Below, piece by piece: positions 9,585 through 17,642 of a DNA stretch of 64,000 bases (its first letter is position 1; each line of letters opens with the position of its first letter). The stretch is from an uncultured delta proteobacterium (GTDB lineage: Bacteria; Myxococcota; Myxococcia; Myxococcales; Myxococcaceae): positions 2,880,001 through 2,944,000 of the forward strand of contig CAWCKH010000004.1 of the NCBI GenBank assembly GCA_963796055.1, in the 5' to 3' direction. The position numbers and the translations under genes were made by a program. The notes beneath the pieces are model-generated. The model was not told the origin of the DNA. It worked only from the letters and a program-made list of their open reading frames with translations, and made no database searches.

Positions 9585-10334
9585 ATGCAGTTCGCGCCCC
9601 AGCCGGAGTGGCAGAGCATCCTCGCCGACATCCTCGTGGCCGCGCAGGCGGTGGGTCCGGCCGGCGTCATCGTCTTCGACCTCGACTCGACCTTGCTGGA
9701 CAACCGCCCCCGTCAGGCGGCCATCGTGCGCGACTTCGCGCGCCTGCACGGCATCCCGGCCCTGGAGGGATTCCAGCCCGAGCACCTGGTCACTGGATTC
9801 GACACCCGGGAGGCGCTGGGCAGAGCCGGGCTGGATCCCGACTCCGTCGCCCGATGGCTGCCGGACCTCCGCAAGCACTGGGTGGAGCGCTTCTTCACCT
9901 CCGAGGCGTGCCTTCACGACATTCCCATCCGGGGGGCGGCCGGGTACGCCCGCCGCGCGCATGCCACGGGGGTCCAGCTGGTCTACCTGACGGCCCGCCC
10001 GGAGCGGATGCGACCCGGGACCGAGGAGGTCCTCCGGCGCTTCGGCTTCCCGCTCCCCGGTCCGGGGGTCCTGCTGTGGATGAAACCGGACGATCCCTCC
10101 GTGGGGGACGATGCCTTCAAGCGCTCCGCCCACGCGCGGCTGGGCTCGCTGGGGCGGCTGGTGGCCGCCTTCGACAACGAGCCGGGTCACGTGAACGACT
10201 TCCGGACGACCTTCCCCGAGGCGGAGGTGGTGCTGGTCGCGACCGGCCACTCGGGCCGTGTGTCAACGCTCGCCCCACGGGTGCGCGTGGTTCCGCACCT
10301 CGCGCTGGAGGGGGAGGCGCCAGAAAACCTGTGA
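9585..10334 (+). CDS. HAD-superfamily hydrolase
   Basis: FDLDSTL motif I, YLTAR motif II, FDNE motif IV. Confidence 0.8.
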   Translation: MQFAPQPEWQSILADILVAAQAVGPAGVIVFDLDSTLLDNRPRQAAIVRDFARLHGIPALEGFQPEHLVTGFDTREALGRAGLDPDSVARWLPDLRKHWVERFFTSEACLHDIPIRGAAGYARRAHATGVQLVYLTARPERMRPGTEEVLRRFGFPLPGPGVLLWMKPDDPSVGDDAFKRSAHARLGSLGRLVAAFDNEPGHVNDFRTTFPEAEVVLVATGHSGRVSTLAPRVRVVPHLALEGEAPENL

Positions 10335-10407
10335 AGGGGGCGCCGCGACGCGGCATGGGGCGAACGCTTGGAAAATCGGGCCTCGAGTGGATATGCAGCG
10401 GCCCGGC

Positions 10408-11541
10408 ATGGCACCTCCGTACCCCAAGGACCTGATCCTCTCGATGTACCGGAAGATGTACCTGATCCGCCGGTTCGAGGAACGGGCAGCGCAGGCCTAC
10501 ACCCAGGGCAAGATCAACGGCTTCTGCCACCTCTACATCGGTCAGGAGGCGGTCGCGGTGGGCACCACCGAGGCGCTGCGTCCCGACGACTACCAGCTCG
10601 GCGCGTACCGCGATCACGGCTATCCGCTGACCCGCGGGGCCGAGCCGGGGATGATCATGGCCGAGCTGTTCGGCAAGGCCACCGGCTACTGCAAGGGCAA
10701 GGGCGGCTCGATGCACATCTTCGACGTCGAGCATTACGTGCTCGGCGGCTACGGCATCGTCGGCGGGCAGATTCCACTTGCGGCCGGGCTGGGGTTCGCC
10801 TCCCGCTACCGCAACGATGGCCGGGTCACGGTCTGCTACTTCGGTGAGGCCGCGGCGAACCAGGGCGCGTTCCACGAGACGCTGAACATGGCGGCCAAAT
10901 GGTCGCTGCCGGTCATCTTCCTCTGCGAGAACAACCGCTACGGGATGGGGACTGCCTTCGCCCGTGTCTCCCCGATGCCCGAGGTCTACAAGCGCGCCGC
11001 GGCCTACGGCATCCGCGGCGAGCCGGTGGACGGGATGGACGTCCTCAAGACTTACGAGGCCGTCAAGGACTGCGCCGCCCACGCCCGTGCCGGGAAGGGG
11101 CCGGTGCTGCTGGAGGCCAACACCTACCGCTACCGCGGCCACTCGATGTCGGACCCGGCGACTTACCGGACCAAGACCGAGCTGGAGGCGGAACGGAAGG
11201 GAGACCCCATCCCCAAGCTCCGGCAGTGGGCGGTGGAGAGCCTGAAGATCTCCGAGTCCGAGTTCGAGAAGATCGACGCCGAGGTGAAGGCCACTGTGGA
11301 CGCGGCGGTGAAGTTCGCCGAGCAGTCGCCGGAGCCGTCGCTGGACGAGCTCCACGAGGACATCTTCGTCGAGCCGAGCGAGCCGGACGTGAAGCCACGC
11401 GAGCGGGTGCTGGGGATGAAGGTCGAGTGGCCGCACCACCCCGGGCCGAAGGACTACCGGGTGACCTGGGACCTCGAGCCGCGCGAGCAGGCCGAGGTGG
11501 CGGAGCAGCAGGCCGGCCTGAAGCAGCCGGCCCGGGCCTGA
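10408..11541 (+). CDS. pdhA: Pyruvate dehydrogenase E1 alpha
   Basis: GFCHLYIGQEA, GKGGSMH, TPP-binding GEAAANQG...NN, YRYRGHSMSDP. Confidence 0.96.
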   Translation: MAPPYPKDLILSMYRKMYLIRRFEERAAQAYTQGKINGFCHLYIGQEAVAVGTTEALRPDDYQLGAYRDHGYPLTRGAEPGMIMAELFGKATGYCKGKGGSMHIFDVEHYVLGGYGIVGGQIPLAAGLGFASRYRNDGRVTVCYFGEAAANQGAFHETLNMAAKWSLPVIFLCENNRYGMGTAFARVSPMPEVYKRAAAYGIRGEPVDGMDVLKTYEAVKDCAAHARAGKGPVLLEANTYRYRGHSMSDPATYRTKTELEAERKGDPIPKLRQWAVESLKISESEFEKIDAEVKATVDAAVKFAEQSPEPSLDELHEDIFVEPSEPDVKPRERVLGMKVEWPHHPGPKDYRVTWDLEPREQAEVAEQQAGLKQPARA

Positions 11542-11570
11542 GACAGCGAGCGACGAGGGACGATCGATCG

Positions 11571-12560
11571 ATGGCTGAGATTGCGTGGCGCGAGGCGCTG
11601 AATCAGGCGCTCTCCGAGGAGATGGAACGCGACGTCAACGTCTTCCTGATGGGAGAGGAGGTCGCGCGCTACAACGGGGCGTACAAGGTCAGCCAGGGGC
11701 TGCTGGACAAGTTCGGCAGTGCCCGGGTGGTGGACGCGCCGATCAGCGAGCTGGGGTTCGCCGGCCTGGGCGTGGGCGCGGCGATGGTGGGGTTGCGGCC
11801 GGTGATCGAGATGATGACCTGGAACTTCGCGATCCTGGCGATGGACCAGATCGTCAACAACGCGGCCAAGCTCCGCCACATGTCCGGCGGGCAGCTGCGC
11901 TGTCCGATCGTCTTCCGCGGACCGAACGGCGCCGGTGGTCGGCTCTCGTCGCAGCACAGCCAGTCGCTGGAGGCGAACTACGCCCACTTCCCGGGACTGA
12001 AGATCCTCGCCCCTTCGACGCCGGCCGACGCCAAGGGGCTGCTCAAGGCGGCGATCCGCGACGACAATCCGATCATCTTCCTGGAGGCCGAGCTGCTCTA
12101 CGGGGTGAAGGGCGAGGTCCCCTCGGGTGAGCACGTGCTGCCCATCGGGAAGGCGGACCTCAAGCGGGAGGGGGAAGACGCGACGGTCATCACCTGGTCG
12201 CGGATGTACTACCTCGCCGAGCAGGCGGCGCAGCAGCTGGAGAAGGAAGGGATCCACGTGGACCTGCTCGACCTGCGAACGCTCAAGCCGCTGGACGAGG
12301 AGGCCATCCTGGCCTCGGTGCGGAAGACCAACCGGGTGGTGGTGGTCGAGGAGGGCTGGAGCTTCTGCGGGGTGGGCGCGCAGATCGCCGACCTCCTCCA
12401 GTCGAAGGCCTTCGACGACCTCGACGCGCCGGTGGAGCGGGTCACCGGCCTGGACGTGAATCGCAGCTACGCGGCGGTGCTGGAGAAGGCGACCGAGGTG
12501 TCGGCGGAGCGGATCGTCACCGCGGTGAAGAAGGTCATGTACCGGGAAGAGGGGACCTGA
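11571..12560 (+). CDS. pdhB: Pyruvate dehydrogenase E1 beta
   Basis: REALNQAL, MGEEV, DAPISELGFAG, QHSQSLE. Confidence 0.96.
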   Translation: MAEIAWREALNQALSEEMERDVNVFLMGEEVARYNGAYKVSQGLLDKFGSARVVDAPISELGFAGLGVGAAMVGLRPVIEMMTWNFAILAMDQIVNNAAKLRHMSGGQLRCPIVFRGPNGAGGRLSSQHSQSLEANYAHFPGLKILAPSTPADAKGLLKAAIRDDNPIIFLEAELLYGVKGEVPSGEHVLPIGKADLKREGEDATVITWSRMYYLAEQAAQQLEKEGIHVDLLDLRTLKPLDEEAILASVRKTNRVVVVEEGWSFCGVGAQIADLLQSKAFDDLDAPVERVTGLDVNRSYAAVLEKATEVSAERIVTAVKKVMYREEGT

Positions 12561-12562
12561 CG

Positions 12563-13894
12563 ATGGCCATCGAGGTGCAGCTTCCGGCGCTCTCCCCGAC
12601 GATGACCGAGGGGAAGATCGTGAAGTGGCTCAAGAAGGAGGGCGACAGCGTGTCCTCCGGTGAGGCCATCGCCGAGGTCGAGACCGACAAGTCAAACCTC
12701 GAGGTGGAGTCGTTCGACGACGGCGTGCTCTTGAAGATCCTGGTCAAGGAGGGCGAGACCGGCGCGGTCGGCGCGCCCATCGCGGTGATCGGCGCCAAGG
12801 GCGAGAAGGTCGAGGTGGCCGCACCGGCGGCGAAGGCCCAAGCTCCCGCGCCCGCTCCGAAGCCCGCGGCCCCGAAGCCCGTCGCCGCGCCCGAGGCCCG
12901 CCGCGAGCAGCCACAGCCGGAAGAACGCGGCCAGCGACCGGGTGCTCCGGCGCAGGTGGTGCCGATCCGCCGGACCGAGGAAGCGGCCCCGGCGCCGGTG
13001 TCCGATGACGGCCGCCTCCGCGCCTCGCCGCTCGCCAGGCGGATGGCCCGTGAGGAGGGTCTCGACCTTGCCGGCGTCCAGGGCTCCGGTCCCAGCGGCC
13101 GCATCGTGAAGCGCGACGTGGAGGCGGCGATGGGCCAGGGACAGGCGGCCACCGCCGCTCCGGCGCCCGCCCCGCGTCCCGGGCCCGCGCCGGCACCTTC
13201 CCCGGTCTTCGGCCGGCGCGAGCCGGAGGTCCTCCCGATCTCCGGGATGCGGAAGATCATCGCCCAGCGCATGGCCGAGGTGAAGCCGGGCGTCCCGCAC
13301 TTCTACGTCACGGTCGACATCGACATGGAGGAGGCGGTCAAGGTCCGGGAGCAGGCCAAGGCCGCGGAGGTGAAGGTCTCGATCAACGACCTCATCGTGA
13401 AGGCCGCGGCGATGGCGCTCCGCCGTCAACCGAAGGTCAACGTCTCGCTGCAAGGGGACCGGCTGCTCCAGTTCCACACCGCGGACGTGGGCATCGCGGT
13501 GGCGATCGAGGATGGCCTCATCACCCCGGTCATCCGGGACGCGGATCTGAAGTCGCTGGGAACCATCGCCGCCGAGGCGCGCGAGCTGGCCGAGCGGGCC
13601 CGGCGCAAGGCACTCAAGCCCGAGGAGTACTCGGGCGGCTCGATCACCGTGTCGAATCTAGGAATGTTCGGTGTGGACTCGTTCATCGCGGTCATCAACC
13701 CGCCGCAGGCGTCGATCGTGGCGGTGGGCGCGGTGGCGGAGCGGGCGGTGGTGCGCGACGGCAAGGTGGTGGTACGCAAGACGATGTCCGCGACGTTCAG
13801 CGGGGACCACCGGATCGTCGACGGCGCACTCGGGGCCCAGTACCTGCAGGAAGTGAAGGCGCTGCTCGAGCAGCCGACCCGGTTGCTGTTCTAG
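12563..13894 (+). CDS. pdhC: Pyruvate dehydrogenase E2 dihydrolipoamide acetyltransferase
   Basis: Lipoyl ETDK, E3-binding ASPLARR...GSGPSGRI, catalytic DHRIVDG. Confidence 0.96.
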   Translation: MAIEVQLPALSPTMTEGKIVKWLKKEGDSVSSGEAIAEVETDKSNLEVESFDDGVLLKILVKEGETGAVGAPIAVIGAKGEKVEVAAPAAKAQAPAPAPKPAAPKPVAAPEARREQPQPEERGQRPGAPAQVVPIRRTEEAAPAPVSDDGRLRASPLARRMAREEGLDLAGVQGSGPSGRIVKRDVEAAMGQGQAATAAPAPAPRPGPAPAPSPVFGRREPEVLPISGMRKIIAQRMAEVKPGVPHFYVTVDIDMEEAVKVREQAKAAEVKVSINDLIVKAAAMALRRQPKVNVSLQGDRLLQFHTADVGIAVAIEDGLITPVIRDADLKSLGTIAAEARELAERARRKALKPEEYSGGSITVSNLGMFGVDSFIAVINPPQASIVAVGAVAERAVVRDGKVVVRKTMSATFSGDHRIVDGALGAQYLQEVKALLEQPTRLLF

Positions 13895-14009
13895 GATGGA
13901 GCGACCCGTCAAGTCAGCTCTCTCGTTCGTTGGTGGCGATGCGTCTGTTCGCTTCGCAGCTCCTCGTGGTTCGTACTTCGAGGCCTTCAGGCAGGGGACG
14001 AGCGAGGGA

Positions 14010-14155
14010 GCTGCGACGGTTGATCACTCTAGGATTCGCGGGTCGGCGGAGCCGCCGCATGACCGTGATTCGTCGGGAGGCTTTCTCGCTCTAGCGGCGT
14101 GGGTCGGCGGGTCGAGCCCGCCGCCACTTAGAACTGTCGAGAGTCCCTCCTACGT
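14010..14155 (-). ncRNA. Putative bridge/seek RNA of the IS1111-type element (boundaries approximate)
   Basis: Two stem/internal-loop/hairpin modules; loop arms match the donor junction (TCTAGGAT 14028-35) and the target (TCTAGC 14090-95, TAGAAC 14129-34). Confidence 0.7.
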
Positions 14156-14210
14156 TCCTGGCTCATCCACTGCCTGCCGGCTTCGAAGCGATGCACGTAC
14201 GTTGCTCCTT

Positions 14211-15306
14211 TCAAGCGGCGCGGGCGATGGCCCAGACAAAGCCGCAGAGCTCGCGAGCCACGGCGACGGCCGCGACCTGCGAAGGTTTGCCGCGGGAGAC
14301 GAAGCGGTGGAAGCGCCGGTGCAGCCGCTCCTGGGCTTTCCATGCGTGGGCTACGACCTTTGCATCCTGGCCCTCCCAGCGCTGTTTGATGACGCCGCTC
14401 TGGCGTGGCGGGCGCCGGTAGTGCCAGGCGGCCTCGACCAGTACGCGCCGGGCGTGTCCGTTGCCCGTCTTGGTGATGCTGCCCCGCCGCTCCTTGGCTC
14501 CGCTCGAGCGCTCGCTCGGGACGAGGCCGACGAAAGCCATGAACTGGTCGGGGTGCTCGAACCGCTGGAAGTCGCAGAATCTCGGCGATGAGGATGACGG
14601 CCGAGAGCGTGTCGATGCCGCGCAGGCAGCGGAGCTTCGCAACGGGAGTTTTATAGGGCTCCTTCTCGGCGGCTGTCGCGAGTTCCTGGTCGAGCGCCTT
14701 GAGACGTCCGAGCGTTCCCTCGAGGCGGGCCAAGTACTCGGTGAAGACCGTCTGTGCGATGGGGGCCTCGAACGTCTGTTTGCGAAGCCACTTCCAGTGC
14801 GGCATCGACCAGTTCTTCTTGCCCTCGGTAAAGCTGCGCCCGTGGCGCAGGAGGAACTTCAGGAGTCGGTCGCGCTCGCGGATGACGTCCTCGCGCGCAT
14901 CCTCTCGGCAGCGAACGAGATCCCGCAGCGCCTCCTCGGCCTCGGAGGGGACGCGAATCGAAGTGAGCTCGCCGGCGCGGTAGAGGCGAGCGAGCTTCTC
15001 GGCGTCGCGCCGGTCGGTCTTGACCCGATCGCCGGCGCGCACCGGGATGAGCGAGGGCGCGACCACGTCGCATGGGATCTTCATCGCTGCGAGCTGCCGG
15101 TAGACCTCGTAGCCGCAACTCCCGGCCTCGTAGCAGGCGCGGACCGCCCCTTCCTTTTTGAGCCTGCCGAAGCAGCGCTTCAGCTCGAGCGCATCGTTCC
15201 GGATCTTCACCGTGGGCCGAGCGCCTCCCCGGTCACCGGCCAGCACCGAGAAGGAAATCGACTCCTTATGCACGTCCATTCCGACGGTCAGCGTTGTAGT
15301 TTTCAC
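14211..15306 (-). CDS. IS110-family DEDD recombinase/transposase (frameshift at ~14579)
   Basis: GMDVHK, CYEAG, KTDRRDA; the shifted frame gives FVGLVPSERSSG...GSITKTGNGHARRVLVEAAW; GAGGAG RBS. Confidence 0.92.
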
Positions 15307-15462
15307 TCGACCGGCTCCTCGTTTGCGGCTCTGGCCGCGGCGTTGCCGAGGCTAATCCGCGCTGAACGAGCGAGCCGGTCGCTCCATACTGTCTAGCTCT
15401 CGGGGCCCGGACGCGCGCGCCTCGAACGGCCGTCCCCCTGGTCTGAGCACTGCCCTCCAACA

Positions 15463-15548: not shown

Positions 15549-17642
15549 TCAGGCCGCGACGTCGCCCGAGCGGCCGGGCGTGGCGGGCGCGGCCAGCGCC
15601 GGCAGCAAGATCCGGAACGTGGTCCCCGGTCCCGGCTCGGACGCGACCTCGAGCGTTCCGCCGGCGCGCTGGACGATGCTCCACACCAGGGTCAGCCCGA
15701 GCCCGATGCCCTGGGTGCCGCCGCGGGTGGTGAAGAACGGCTCGAAGATGCGCGACAGGTGCGCCGCGGGGATACCCGGTCCCTCGTCCTGCACCTCGAT
15801 CACCACCGCGCCCTGCTCGTCGTGCGTCCGGACACGGAGCGTGCCCGAGGGCGCAGCGAGCCGCGCGTTCCGGATGAGCTGGACCAGCGCTTGCTCCAGC
15901 TGCCCCGGGGTCACCATCACCCGCGCGGAGCTCTCGGCCCGCAGCATCTCGGCCCCGGCCTCCCCGAGCTCGCCGCGGAGGACCTTGACCACGCAGTCGT
16001 TGGGGTCCACGGCCTCGGGCCGGGTCACATCTTGCCGGGCGAGCTCGCGCAGCCCCTTGACGATGGCGCCGATGCGCTGCGCGCCGCCCTCCACGTCCTG
16101 GAAGAGCTCGCGGAGGCTCGCGGCGAGATCGCGGATCTGCACCTCGGTGAGCGCCCGGACCGCGGCCGCGGCGTCGCCCTGCCCGCCGAGGCGCGCCGCC
16201 CGCTCGATGGAGTCGGCGCCGGACTCGAGCTCGGCGGCCACGCCGCGCAGTGCCGAGAGGCTGTCCAGCATCGCCCCGAGAGGCGTCTGGATCTCGTGAG
16301 CGGCGCCCTGCGCCAGCTGCCCGAGCGAGGCCAGGCGCTCCTGCTCCCGCAGCCGTGCTTCCAGCCCGCGCTGGGCGGTCACGTCGCGGTAGTGGACGAC
16401 CACCAGATCCGGGTCCCCGGCGGCCTCGGTCCGGAAGCCGCTGAAGCGCACCTTCCGGCCGCGGGGCAGGGAGATCTCCGCGGTGAGGTCCGGCGCACCG
16501 GTGGCGAGCGGGCAGCCCACGCACGGCGCCACCCGTCCGGCGAGCAGCTGATGACAGGTCTTCCCCGGCACCTGGGTGATCGGAAGGCCCGCCGCGTCGG
16601 CGTAGGCGAGGTTCGCCCGGCGGATGACGAAGCCGTCCTGGAGGGCGATGGGCTCGCGGATGGCGTCGAAGGTGCGCTCCCACTCGCGCTTGGCGTGCAC
16701 CACCGCCCGGGTGCGGAGCTCGATCTTCGCCTCCAGCGCGGCGTTGGCGGCGAGGATCTCGCTCTGTACCTCGTGGAGCCGGGCGGTGTTGAGCGCACCG
16801 GCGAGCGCGGTTGCCACCTGTGAGCCCCAGGCCGAGAAGCGCTGGCGGTCGGCGTCGGAGAACGCCGAGCGCCCCGGGCGACGAACCGCCTCCAGCACGC
16901 CCACCAGCTCTCCGGCGCGGACCAAGGGGACGGCGAGCATCGCCCCGGGTTCGGCACCGTCACGGCGACGTACCGCCTCACGCCACGGTTCGGGCAGCTC
17001 GCCCTCGGCGTGGCAGAGCAGCGCGGGTTCGGCGGCGCAGGCTCCGGCGAGCAGCTCGCCGATGGCCATCGACGCAGGGGGAGCGGGCAGCGCCGGGTCG
17101 GCCGCCCCAAGGGTCAGGGTGACCTGCTCACCGATGCGCCAGCAGAGCACCCGATCGGCCTGCACCAGCCGCCGGACGCGGCGCACCGCCTCCCAGGCGA
17201 TCTTCTCCGGGGTGGGCAAGAGGTGGAGCGCCTGCACCTCCGAGGAGAATCGCTCCGCCTCGGACAGTCGCTGCTCCAGCGTGGGCGCCACCTGGGCCGG
17301 AGCAGTGTCCAGCCCGCGGCGGGCGCGGGCCTCGCGGAGGGCTGGTGCCACCTCGTCGGTGCGGGTGACGGCGACCACCCCGGCGGGAAGCGCGCGGGGG
17401 GCCGGGCCCTCGCCCACGTGGAGGAGGGCGGTGGCGCCGGAGGCGACGACGCGGGAGAGCAGGAGGCGCCAGAACGGGACCGGTCGGGCGAGCACGGCCT
17501 CCGCCACGCCCGCTCCGAGCAGGCTGAGGACCTCGTCCGGGGTACAGGGCCGGGGATCGAGCCCGCCCGCACGGAGCTCGTCGAGCAGCGCCGGTGGGGG
17601 CGCGTCGGGGCCGACGACGAGGACCGGCAGGGTCGGCTCCAT
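15549..17642 (-). CDS. Sensor histidine kinase (GAF-PAS-HisKA-HATPase)
   Basis: GAF AVPLVRAGELVGVLEA, PAS WERTFDAI, H-box AAHEIQTP, DEGPG, FEPFFTT, GLGL. Confidence 0.9.
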   Translation of the reverse strand: MEPTLPVLVVGPDAPPPALLDELRAGGLDPRPCTPDEVLSLLGAGVAEAVLARPVPFWRLLLSRVVASGATALLHVGEGPAPRALPAGVVAVTRTDEVAPALREARARRGLDTAPAQVAPTLEQRLSEAERFSSEVQALHLLPTPEKIAWEAVRRVRRLVQADRVLCWRIGEQVTLTLGAADPALPAPPASMAIGELLAGACAAEPALLCHAEGELPEPWREAVRRRDGAEPGAMLAVPLVRAGELVGVLEAVRRPGRSAFSDADRQRFSAWGSQVATALAGALNTARLHEVQSEILAANAALEAKIELRTRAVVHAKREWERTFDAIREPIALQDGFVIRRANLAYADAAGLPITQVPGKTCHQLLAGRVAPCVGCPLATGAPDLTAEISLPRGRKVRFSGFRTEAAGDPDLVVVHYRDVTAQRGLEARLREQERLASLGQLAQGAAHEIQTPLGAMLDSLSALRGVAAELESGADSIERAARLGGQGDAAAAVRALTEVQIRDLAASLRELFQDVEGGAQRIGAIVKGLRELARQDVTRPEAVDPNDCVVKVLRGELGEAGAEMLRAESSARVMVTPGQLEQALVQLIRNARLAAPSGTLRVRTHDEQGAVVIEVQDEGPGIPAAHLSRIFEPFFTTRGGTQGIGLGLTLVWSIVQRAGGTLEVASEPGPGTTFRILLPALAAPATPGRSGDVAA

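Follow-up and report, generated by a model that had tools for sequence, protein, structure and literature searches.

A predicted guide RNA that would read target and donor junction in an IS1111-type insertion sequence from an uncultured myxobacterium

The window analyzed here is a stretch of 64,000 nucleotides of contig CAWCKH010000004.1 (GenBank assembly GCA_963796055.1), from an uncultured delta proteobacterium assigned to the Myxococcaceae. Positions 10258–13894 of the window hold an intact run of pyruvate dehydrogenase genes—i.e. E1-alpha, E1-beta, and E2, the E1 genes being named by reading and E2 by Pfam—that ends at an insertion sequence and faces a GAF/PAS histidine kinase gene at 15549–17642. 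The last gene of the run, encoding dihydrolipoamide acetyltransferase (E2; 12563–13894, plus strand; PF00198, PF00364, and PF02817), is intact and ends inside the right end of the element, with the C-terminus EQPTRLLF found in 8 of 9 relatives. This gene end is element-free in all 9 same-genus genomes with a match, and locus L182 carries an unoccupied GTTCTAGC at the end of its E2 gene.

The whole insertion sequence (13893–15394, minus strand, with one copy of a 2-nt core counted at the left end) belongs to the IS110 family and has an IS1111-type layout. It was delimited from copies with differing flanks, and its ends obey the extension rule given for IS1111 elements, whose inverted repeats are set in by 7 nt at the left and 3 nt at the right (PMC11187229; this and the other papers on these elements are cited from the available portions of their text). 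The left extension AGACAGT (15388–15394, minus strand) starts with the core AG, which reads CT at 15393–15394 on the plus strand. It borders an 11-bp sub-terminal inverted repeat (15377–15387, minus strand) that is the perfect complement of its counterpart on the right (13896–13906, minus strand), the IS1111 range being ∼11–13 bp. The right extension is CCT (13893–13895, minus strand), and its first two plus-strand bases (AG, 13893–13894) complete the stop codon of the E2 gene; the T of that stop is supplied by the core, and the E2 protein ends as it does in relatives. The non-coding regions, ∼320 nt downstream of the transposase and ∼90 nt upstream, are likewise those of the IS1111 group.

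A −35-like hexamer, TTGACG (13907–13912, minus strand), would stand 17 nt ahead of CAGTAT (15391–15386) if the element formed a circle and, as read from the sequence, may contribute to a promoter there. A loosely defined TTGAC-like motif lies within the last 40 nt of the element in 57 of 58 relatives, and a promoter scan of 13850–14300 finds no sigma-70-like promoter in the linear element. The contigs of 4 DNA runs contain neither a circle joint nor an empty-site joint, and contigs cannot exclude either; the 19 sequencing runs listed for the element include no RNA run. In another group of related elements (G413, L217–L236), seven copies differ by a 3-nt duplication around CTAG in the right end, just before the −35 hexamer.

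The source genome carries five copies of the element, which are 99.7–100% identical and have different flanks. All five share the same target and orientation, with a short shared core and no true target duplication, as is typical of the IS110 family, and five copies this similar show that the element moved recently. It was not found in 12 same-genus genomes examined, and within the phylum 17 of 400 genomes carry relatives.

The recombinase gene (14211–15306, minus strand) encodes a DEDD protein of 364 aa in the intact copy L002, matches PF01548 and PF02371, and scores 253 bits against NF033542 (cut-off 140). Its DEDD RuvC-like domain and C-terminal Tnp domain with a catalytic serine are those of the IS110 family, and residues D11, E60, D98, D101, and S268, which are invariant in 58 homologs, correspond to the IS621 active site (D11, E60, D102, D105, and S241; PMC11208158). 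Four of the five assembled copies carry a frameshift, caused in the window by one extra base near 14578. That base is missing from the contigs of all 4 short-read runs, one contig of which extends into this locus's own flank, and the frameshift is probably an assembly error. As such, the recombinase probably does not need the frame repair that an earlier sequence-only reading of the locus had assumed. We also considered the element as likely dead and set this reading aside, given the intact assembled copy and the absence of the extra base from the contigs of all 4 runs.

Downstream of the recombinase gene, the minus strand holds the conserved core of a predicted bridge/seek RNA (14014–14155), in which a target-binding module is followed by a donor-binding module; its covariance-model score is 107.7 bits, this sequence having been in the training set. 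The target module consists of an outer stem (14150–14138/14088–14076), the left target guide CAGTTCT, which ends in the core CT (14130–14136; arm CAGTTCT(A), 14136–14129), a hairpin (14127–14099), the right target guide GCTAG, with three target bases and the core (14091–14095; arm GCTAG(A), 14095–14090), and a handshake-like dinucleotide at 14089–14090. The donor module has a stem ATCAC/GTGAT (14069–14065/14027–14023), a putative left donor guide ACGGTC that is short and partly within that stem (14061–14066), a hairpin (14058–14038), the right donor guide ATCCTAG, made up of the inverted-repeat end, the 3-nt extension, and the core (14029–14035; arm ATCCTAG(A), 14035–14028), and a second handshake-like dinucleotide (14027–14028). 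All of these features are on the minus strand, where every motif named in the sequence-only reading is found in place (14150–14014).

The region from 13960 to 14200 folds at −115.2 kcal/mol (z = −4.99), a stability reached by none of 200 shuffles, and its minimum free energy structure holds both proposed modules together with a CGACG/CGTCG stem that the sequence-only reading had left unnamed. A long outer stem (14190–14160 with 14010–13975, minus strand) is also predicted around both modules and may define the ends of a longer RNA. Across 40 sequences, 27 specified pairs are formed in 88.8% of cells, with two-sided changes at 16 of the 27, for a structure drawn from the same 40 sequences, which favors it. 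None of 500 shuffles reaches these values, and slid controls give 27–44%. Stem support is strongest in the target module, where two pairs, for example, show 19 and 23 two-sided changes; the donor module has less, and its ATCAC/GTGAT stem is the weakest (72% paired). RNAalifold alone recovers 12 pairs. Conserved stems with compensatory changes are a trait of bridge RNAs, and a search of Rfam gives no family match for the region, with one chance match at E = 1.8.

The flanks of the copies share GTT-CT-AGC, as the target loop predicts. Read on the strand opposite the transposase, GTT lies ahead of the core in all five copies, and C follows CTAG in the four with the other flank on the contig. At the window locus, the left half of the target and the core CT (13885–13892, with CT at 13891–13892; plus strand) are the last codons of the E2 gene, and the right half is AGC (15395–15397, plus strand), common to all 4 copies that have this flank. 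Ahead of GTT, the next two bases are more variable (CT, CC, AA, CA, and CA in the five copies, and CA at a sixth site from a run of another study). The first arm, CA-GTT-CT, is thus fully matched at 2 of the 5 genome sites, or 3 of 6 with the site from the other study, and its match to the window site is imperfect. The view that GTT and C are part of the element was rejected: in relatives these bases belong to codons of the host, and they change along with the guides.

Two scans of sequence collections returned at least 160 loci at 42–88% identity. Overall, 176 loci have a near-complete gene, redundant loci of the source genome included; ends were called in 111 of them, giving 102 distinct junctions, and 65 were left aside. 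The ends were called from the inverted repeats without use of the RNA, with a bonus for AG at the junctions, and the RNA is present behind the transposase in all 102 elements with called ends. We removed 8 manually (in 4 the repeat had been mis-called inside the RNA, 3 were irregular, and 1 lacked a flank), as well as 2 partial alignments and 4 with short flanks, which left 88, or 58 and 40 representatives at 90% and 80% RNA identity, respectively. The system, put forward earlier as a myxobacterial example, is not specific to myxobacteria: relatives are found in records titled Acidobacteria, Actinomycetota, Elusimicrobia, Gammaproteobacteria, and others. Among the divergent loci, five (L029, L030, L043, L151, and L195) have non-coding tails of ∼550–620 nt, with the RNA 95–105 nt from the right end in L029, L030, L043, and L151, and a 43%-identical element (G021; L008, L011, L013, and L015) has a 6-nt left extension and different guides.

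With positions numbered from the AG core in element orientation, the target guides vary with the DNA that they would pair with. The left target guide matches target +3, +4, +5, and +6 in 53, 53, 52, and 48 of 58 representatives (16–20 in shuffles) and target +7 in 28 (15 expected), while +8, at 20 of 58 (14.5 expected), is not significant. The right target guide matches target −1, −2, and −3 in 55, 55, and 38 of 58 (33, 21, and 15 expected), with no signal at −4. In total, the 58 representatives have 54 different targets, and in 48 representatives at least 6 of the 7 variable positions match. Both target-loop arms thus covary with both target strands, as in bridge RNAs.

The right donor guide, which also covaries with the donor as bridge RNAs do, equals the 3-nt right extension in 58 of 58 at each of its three variable positions (41, 37, and 36 expected), over 11 extension types and with 4–8 changes per position on the tree. 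Because this 3′ donor arm follows the right-end extension throughout, over so many types and changes, the donor module appears to be under selection to match the element end. By contrast, the left donor guide ACGGTC, which had been read as a firm match to the donor, agrees with it in 27–42 of 58 per position (18–30 expected). In its best register it gives 164 of 232 matches versus 116 expected, and on the tree it stays near control columns except at donor +4. The arm is three bases shorter than its target counterpart, and the plain register fits 41 of 58, a one-base shift being better in 13 of 58 (a sub-clade). The proposal that the arms covary with their DNA therefore stands for three of the four, with weak support for the left donor arm.

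The permutation test gives P ≤ 0.0002 at 9 variable guide positions, crossed controls are flat (i.e. left target guide against donor and right donor guide against target), and the matches persist among the 40 representatives at 80% dereplication. In a tree of 56 transposases, from which L041 and L161 were omitted, a DNA difference within an independent pair goes with an RNA difference in the same direction, and almost never in the opposite one, at target +3 to +6, at −1 to −3 of the target, and at donor −3 to −1, with sums over the four letters counting some pairs twice. A second set of 17 RNAs obtained in later searches, ∼4 of which belong to elements already in the first set, gives matches of 56/68, 46/51, and 51/51, and 16 of 17 at the handshake base. 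Multi-copy elements of other genomes, delimited by copy-to-copy comparison, share the flanks that their own guides predict. The overall proposal of two loops, the first reading the target and the second the donor junction, is borne out by this covariation with flanks and ends.

Several multi-copy groups have peculiar surroundings. For example, four copies of a related element (G220; L204, L210, L212, and L214) lie in a conserved repeat and are alike well beyond the guide-matched bases on both sides. The flanks of G107 copies (L195, L209, L211, and L213) have runs of short CTAG-containing repeats, with two copies in tandem on contig C21, possibly through repeated insertion into regenerated targets. 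In G418 (L239, L246, L247, and L248), 4 of 5 copies end at one point inside the RNA donor module, without a normal left end, and look like a composite or truncated unit that nonetheless spread.

Next to the guides, the handshake-like bases follow the non-cognate DNA at the level of the family, another trait of bridge RNAs. In the target loop, the first base is identical to donor +3 in all 58 representatives (32 expected) and to target +3 in 12 (13 expected), with only 4 changes on the tree, and the second agrees with donor +4 in 39 of 58 (24 expected). The final A of GCTAGA, taken earlier as part of the match to the target, thus follows the donor. In the donor loop, the first base equals target +3 in 26 of 58 (13 expected), and the second, at 7 of 58, has no signal. 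For the element in the window the handshake bases are neutral: A stands at +3 in target and donor alike, and the second base agrees with neither, which leaves no net gain.

The core is another point on which the family departs from the sequence-only reading, which had named CTAG. This element is the one case in 58 with CTAG in target and donor alike, whereas the target and donor junctions are AG/AG in element orientation (CT on the other strand) in 54 of 58, AG/AA in 3, and AA/AA in 1, a count biased by the bonus for AG in the end finder and in agreement with rule-free copy-to-copy comparison. By these figures the core is 2 nt, CT, as in IS621, and the CTAG proposal was rejected. Where the core is AA (L028 and L039), the guides change along with it. 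In the sub-clade of L027, L037, and L054, the left target guide ends in TTTT and the sites read TTCT, which implies wobble or a mismatch at the core.

Taken together, these patterns make it very probable that an IS1111-type bridge recombinase has its guide RNA encoded here, with arms that would read the target and the donor junction around a 2-nt core. A mechanism has been published for IS621 and ISEc11 (PMC11208160, PMC11208158, and PMC11187229), and by analogy with both the element would circularize, its joined ends would form a promoter (TTGACG-17-CAGTAT), and a transcript would run through the recombinase gene and then be processed to the RNA. The target loop would pair with (CA)GTT-CT-AGC on both strands, and the donor loop, mainly by its 3′ arm, with the right end (AT-CCT-AG), while the handshake base of the target loop would pair with the incoming donor strand. 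Strand exchange, again as in IS621 and ISEc11, would occur at the CT core. Relative to IS621, target and donor are on the other strand from the recombinase gene, which results in the arm order reported for IS1111 seekRNAs. Single-strand, donor-only excision has been reported for IS621 in a preprint (10.64898/2026.08.31.748434), and the strong match to the donor end seen here would also fit such a reaction. From the natural variation of the guides we infer that the RNA may be reprogrammable.

The donor module is where another reading of this RNA has most room. The target module alone could be the working guide, as in the short ISEc11 seekRNA, with the ends recognized by the protein through the inverted repeats and the donor module an accessory; a 70–100 nt seekRNA with target matches suffices for ISEc11 (PMC11187229), and this family combines long inverted repeats with a weak 5′ donor arm. 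We consider this unlikely, as the 3′ donor arm equals the right-end extension in every one of the 58 relatives, whichever of the 11 extension types they carry.

It is far less probable still that the matches are relics of local duplication or conversion among the ends, flank, and non-coding region rather than traces of RNA–DNA pairing. In favor of such a relic, the 3′ donor arm directly repeats the right end of the element at a distance of 130 nt. The target arms, however, find their matches beyond the element, on opposite strands and with 54 different targets among 58 representatives, and they predict where other copies of multi-copy elements sit. Coincidental matches within a GC-rich hairpin region, e.g. 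a terminator or mRNA stabilizer, would be in keeping with arms of just 5–8 nt and with the lack of an Rfam family, yet this account is the least credible of all given the permutation values at the 9 variable guide positions and an RNA behind the transposase wherever ends were called.

In the source genome, the insertion site of 4 of the 5 copies is the TAG stop codon of a called gene (E2, pheS, and two genes without a Pfam match), and one copy is intergenic; because the target contains TAG and the right end starts with AG on that strand, insertion at a TAG stop rebuilds the stop. Among relatives, target −1 is T in 42 of 58, with TAG making up 9% of NAG in the flanks, and in 47 of 58 the right end would rebuild TGA or TAG. 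The junction ends an open frame of at least 100 codons in 31 of 81 cases, compared with 32 of 474 for the same 4-mer in the flanks, and 18 of these 31 frames have a Pfam match. For 28 related elements, 14 are at stops, 13 in non-coding, and 1 in coding sequence, against 7, 47, and 30 local controls (P = 3e-4 versus non-coding alone), a count obtained with a crude gene caller in GC-rich loci, on stop-bearing 4-mers only and with one junction per element.

Other observations weigh against this trend. Insertions within genes are purged, and of the 1006 CTAG sites in the source genome that are non-coding or at stops, 391 (39%) are stops, so that the gap to 52% is much smaller. Similarly, in that genome occupied sites are at stops in 4 of 5 cases and unoccupied GTTCTAGC sites in 11 of 17, which is not clearly more often. 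The IS621 target also has A after CT, and with this in mind the trend could possibly be a biochemical preference. A literature search on stop-codon targeting by these elements returned nothing on point, most subscription journals being outside the search.

That the sub-family evolved guides aimed at stop codons as a safe harbor is a tentative and rather doubtful proposal. Under it, the right target guide would usually set T before the AG core, the core would keep TAG on one strand, and the commonest right extensions would rebuild TGA or TAG on the other. If true, freely reprogrammed elements would land at gene ends without truncating the gene, and the trend, should it hold, would illustrate how a reprogrammable element keeps damage to its host low. 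In G021 (L008, L011, L013, and L015), 3 of 4 copies are called at TAG stops on the element's own strand, and the fourth also ends a 160-codon frame. In two further relatives (L083:821–1381 and L085:2883–3689), the insertion point is the stop codon of a different transposase gene (DDE_3).

Genome editing now makes use of bridge recombinases, and the structural studies available to us in part cover IS621 and ISCro4. Right-end (IS1111-type) RNAs are less resolved, the two founding papers differing, in their available portions, on the need for a donor loop. The element and its relatives give a guide code position by position, with ∼5–6 + 2 + 3 target bases, 3 + 2 donor bases, and the handshake bases. 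If the interpretation is true, the family also offers natural material for studying an IS1111-type donor loop in which one arm does most of the work. The target is short, as reflected by 17 unoccupied GTTCTAGC sites left in the source genome, so this would not be an unusually specific tool.

The closest named elements found are ISEc45 and ISSso6, whose transposases are 44% and 43% identical, respectively, and the plasmid matches include no named element above 50% identity. The covariance model of the RNA has a match of 85.5 bits behind ISSso6 and 40.1 bits behind ISEc45; of the 26 sources given it matches 23, and two of the misses are loci with the gene end but no element. In an ISEc45 copy (L191:2007–2430) the RNA is present (40 bits) with no right inverted repeat evident by eye, and this copy may be truncated by another element. 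A third element, ISCARN28, belongs to the six for which Durrant et al. (PMC11208160) predicted a bridge RNA; that paper appears to place it with the IS1111 group, and the source table of PMC11187229 puts it between ISSso6 and ISEc45. By reading, it shares long motifs with our transposase and would fall in the same clade, and protein length together with the order of that table suggests a separate sub-clade with ISCARN28. The guide sequences and target of the ISSso6/ISEc45/ISCARN28 clade differ from those of our element. A literature search on the name ISCARN28 returned only the Durrant paper and its preprint; the figures or supplements of the founding papers may already contain this structure. 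Bridge RNAs have also been mined at scale (32,190 scored with 86 models; 10.64898/2026.10.21.760802), and for this reason the family may already be in the mined sets.

Compared with the IS1111 seekRNAs of ISEc11, ISKpn4, ISPst6, and ISPa11 (Siddiquee et al. 2024, PMC11187229), the element has the same 11-bp sub-terminal repeats with 7-nt and 3-nt extensions, the same non-coding region downstream of the transposase and putative junction promoter layout, and the same order in the RNA, with the top-strand complement 5′ of the bottom-strand match. It differs in its transposase (364 aa, against 330–350 aa), in the position of its clade, away from IS1111/ISEc11 by the order of the source table, and in its donor loop, the available portion of that paper assigning no donor-binding loop.

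The bridge RNAs of IS621 and ISCro4/IS622 (PMC11208160, PMC11208158, PMC13626964, and 10.1101/2025.05.14.653916) likewise have two loops, target then donor, with four guide arms and a CT core, and the same handshake bases pairing with non-cognate DNA (a pattern described in PMC11208158 and PMC13626964) and DEDD and serine active site. Unlike theirs, which lies at the left end, the RNA described here lies at the right end, target and donor are on the strand opposite the recombinase, and long inverted repeats go with a short, degenerate left donor guide; the IS621 and ISCro4 proteins are distant relatives of this recombinase (E = 3e-8 and 5e-9). On sequence comparison, it is well supported that the element is a new example of a known RNA-guided system and that ISSso6 and ISEc45 carry the same RNA.
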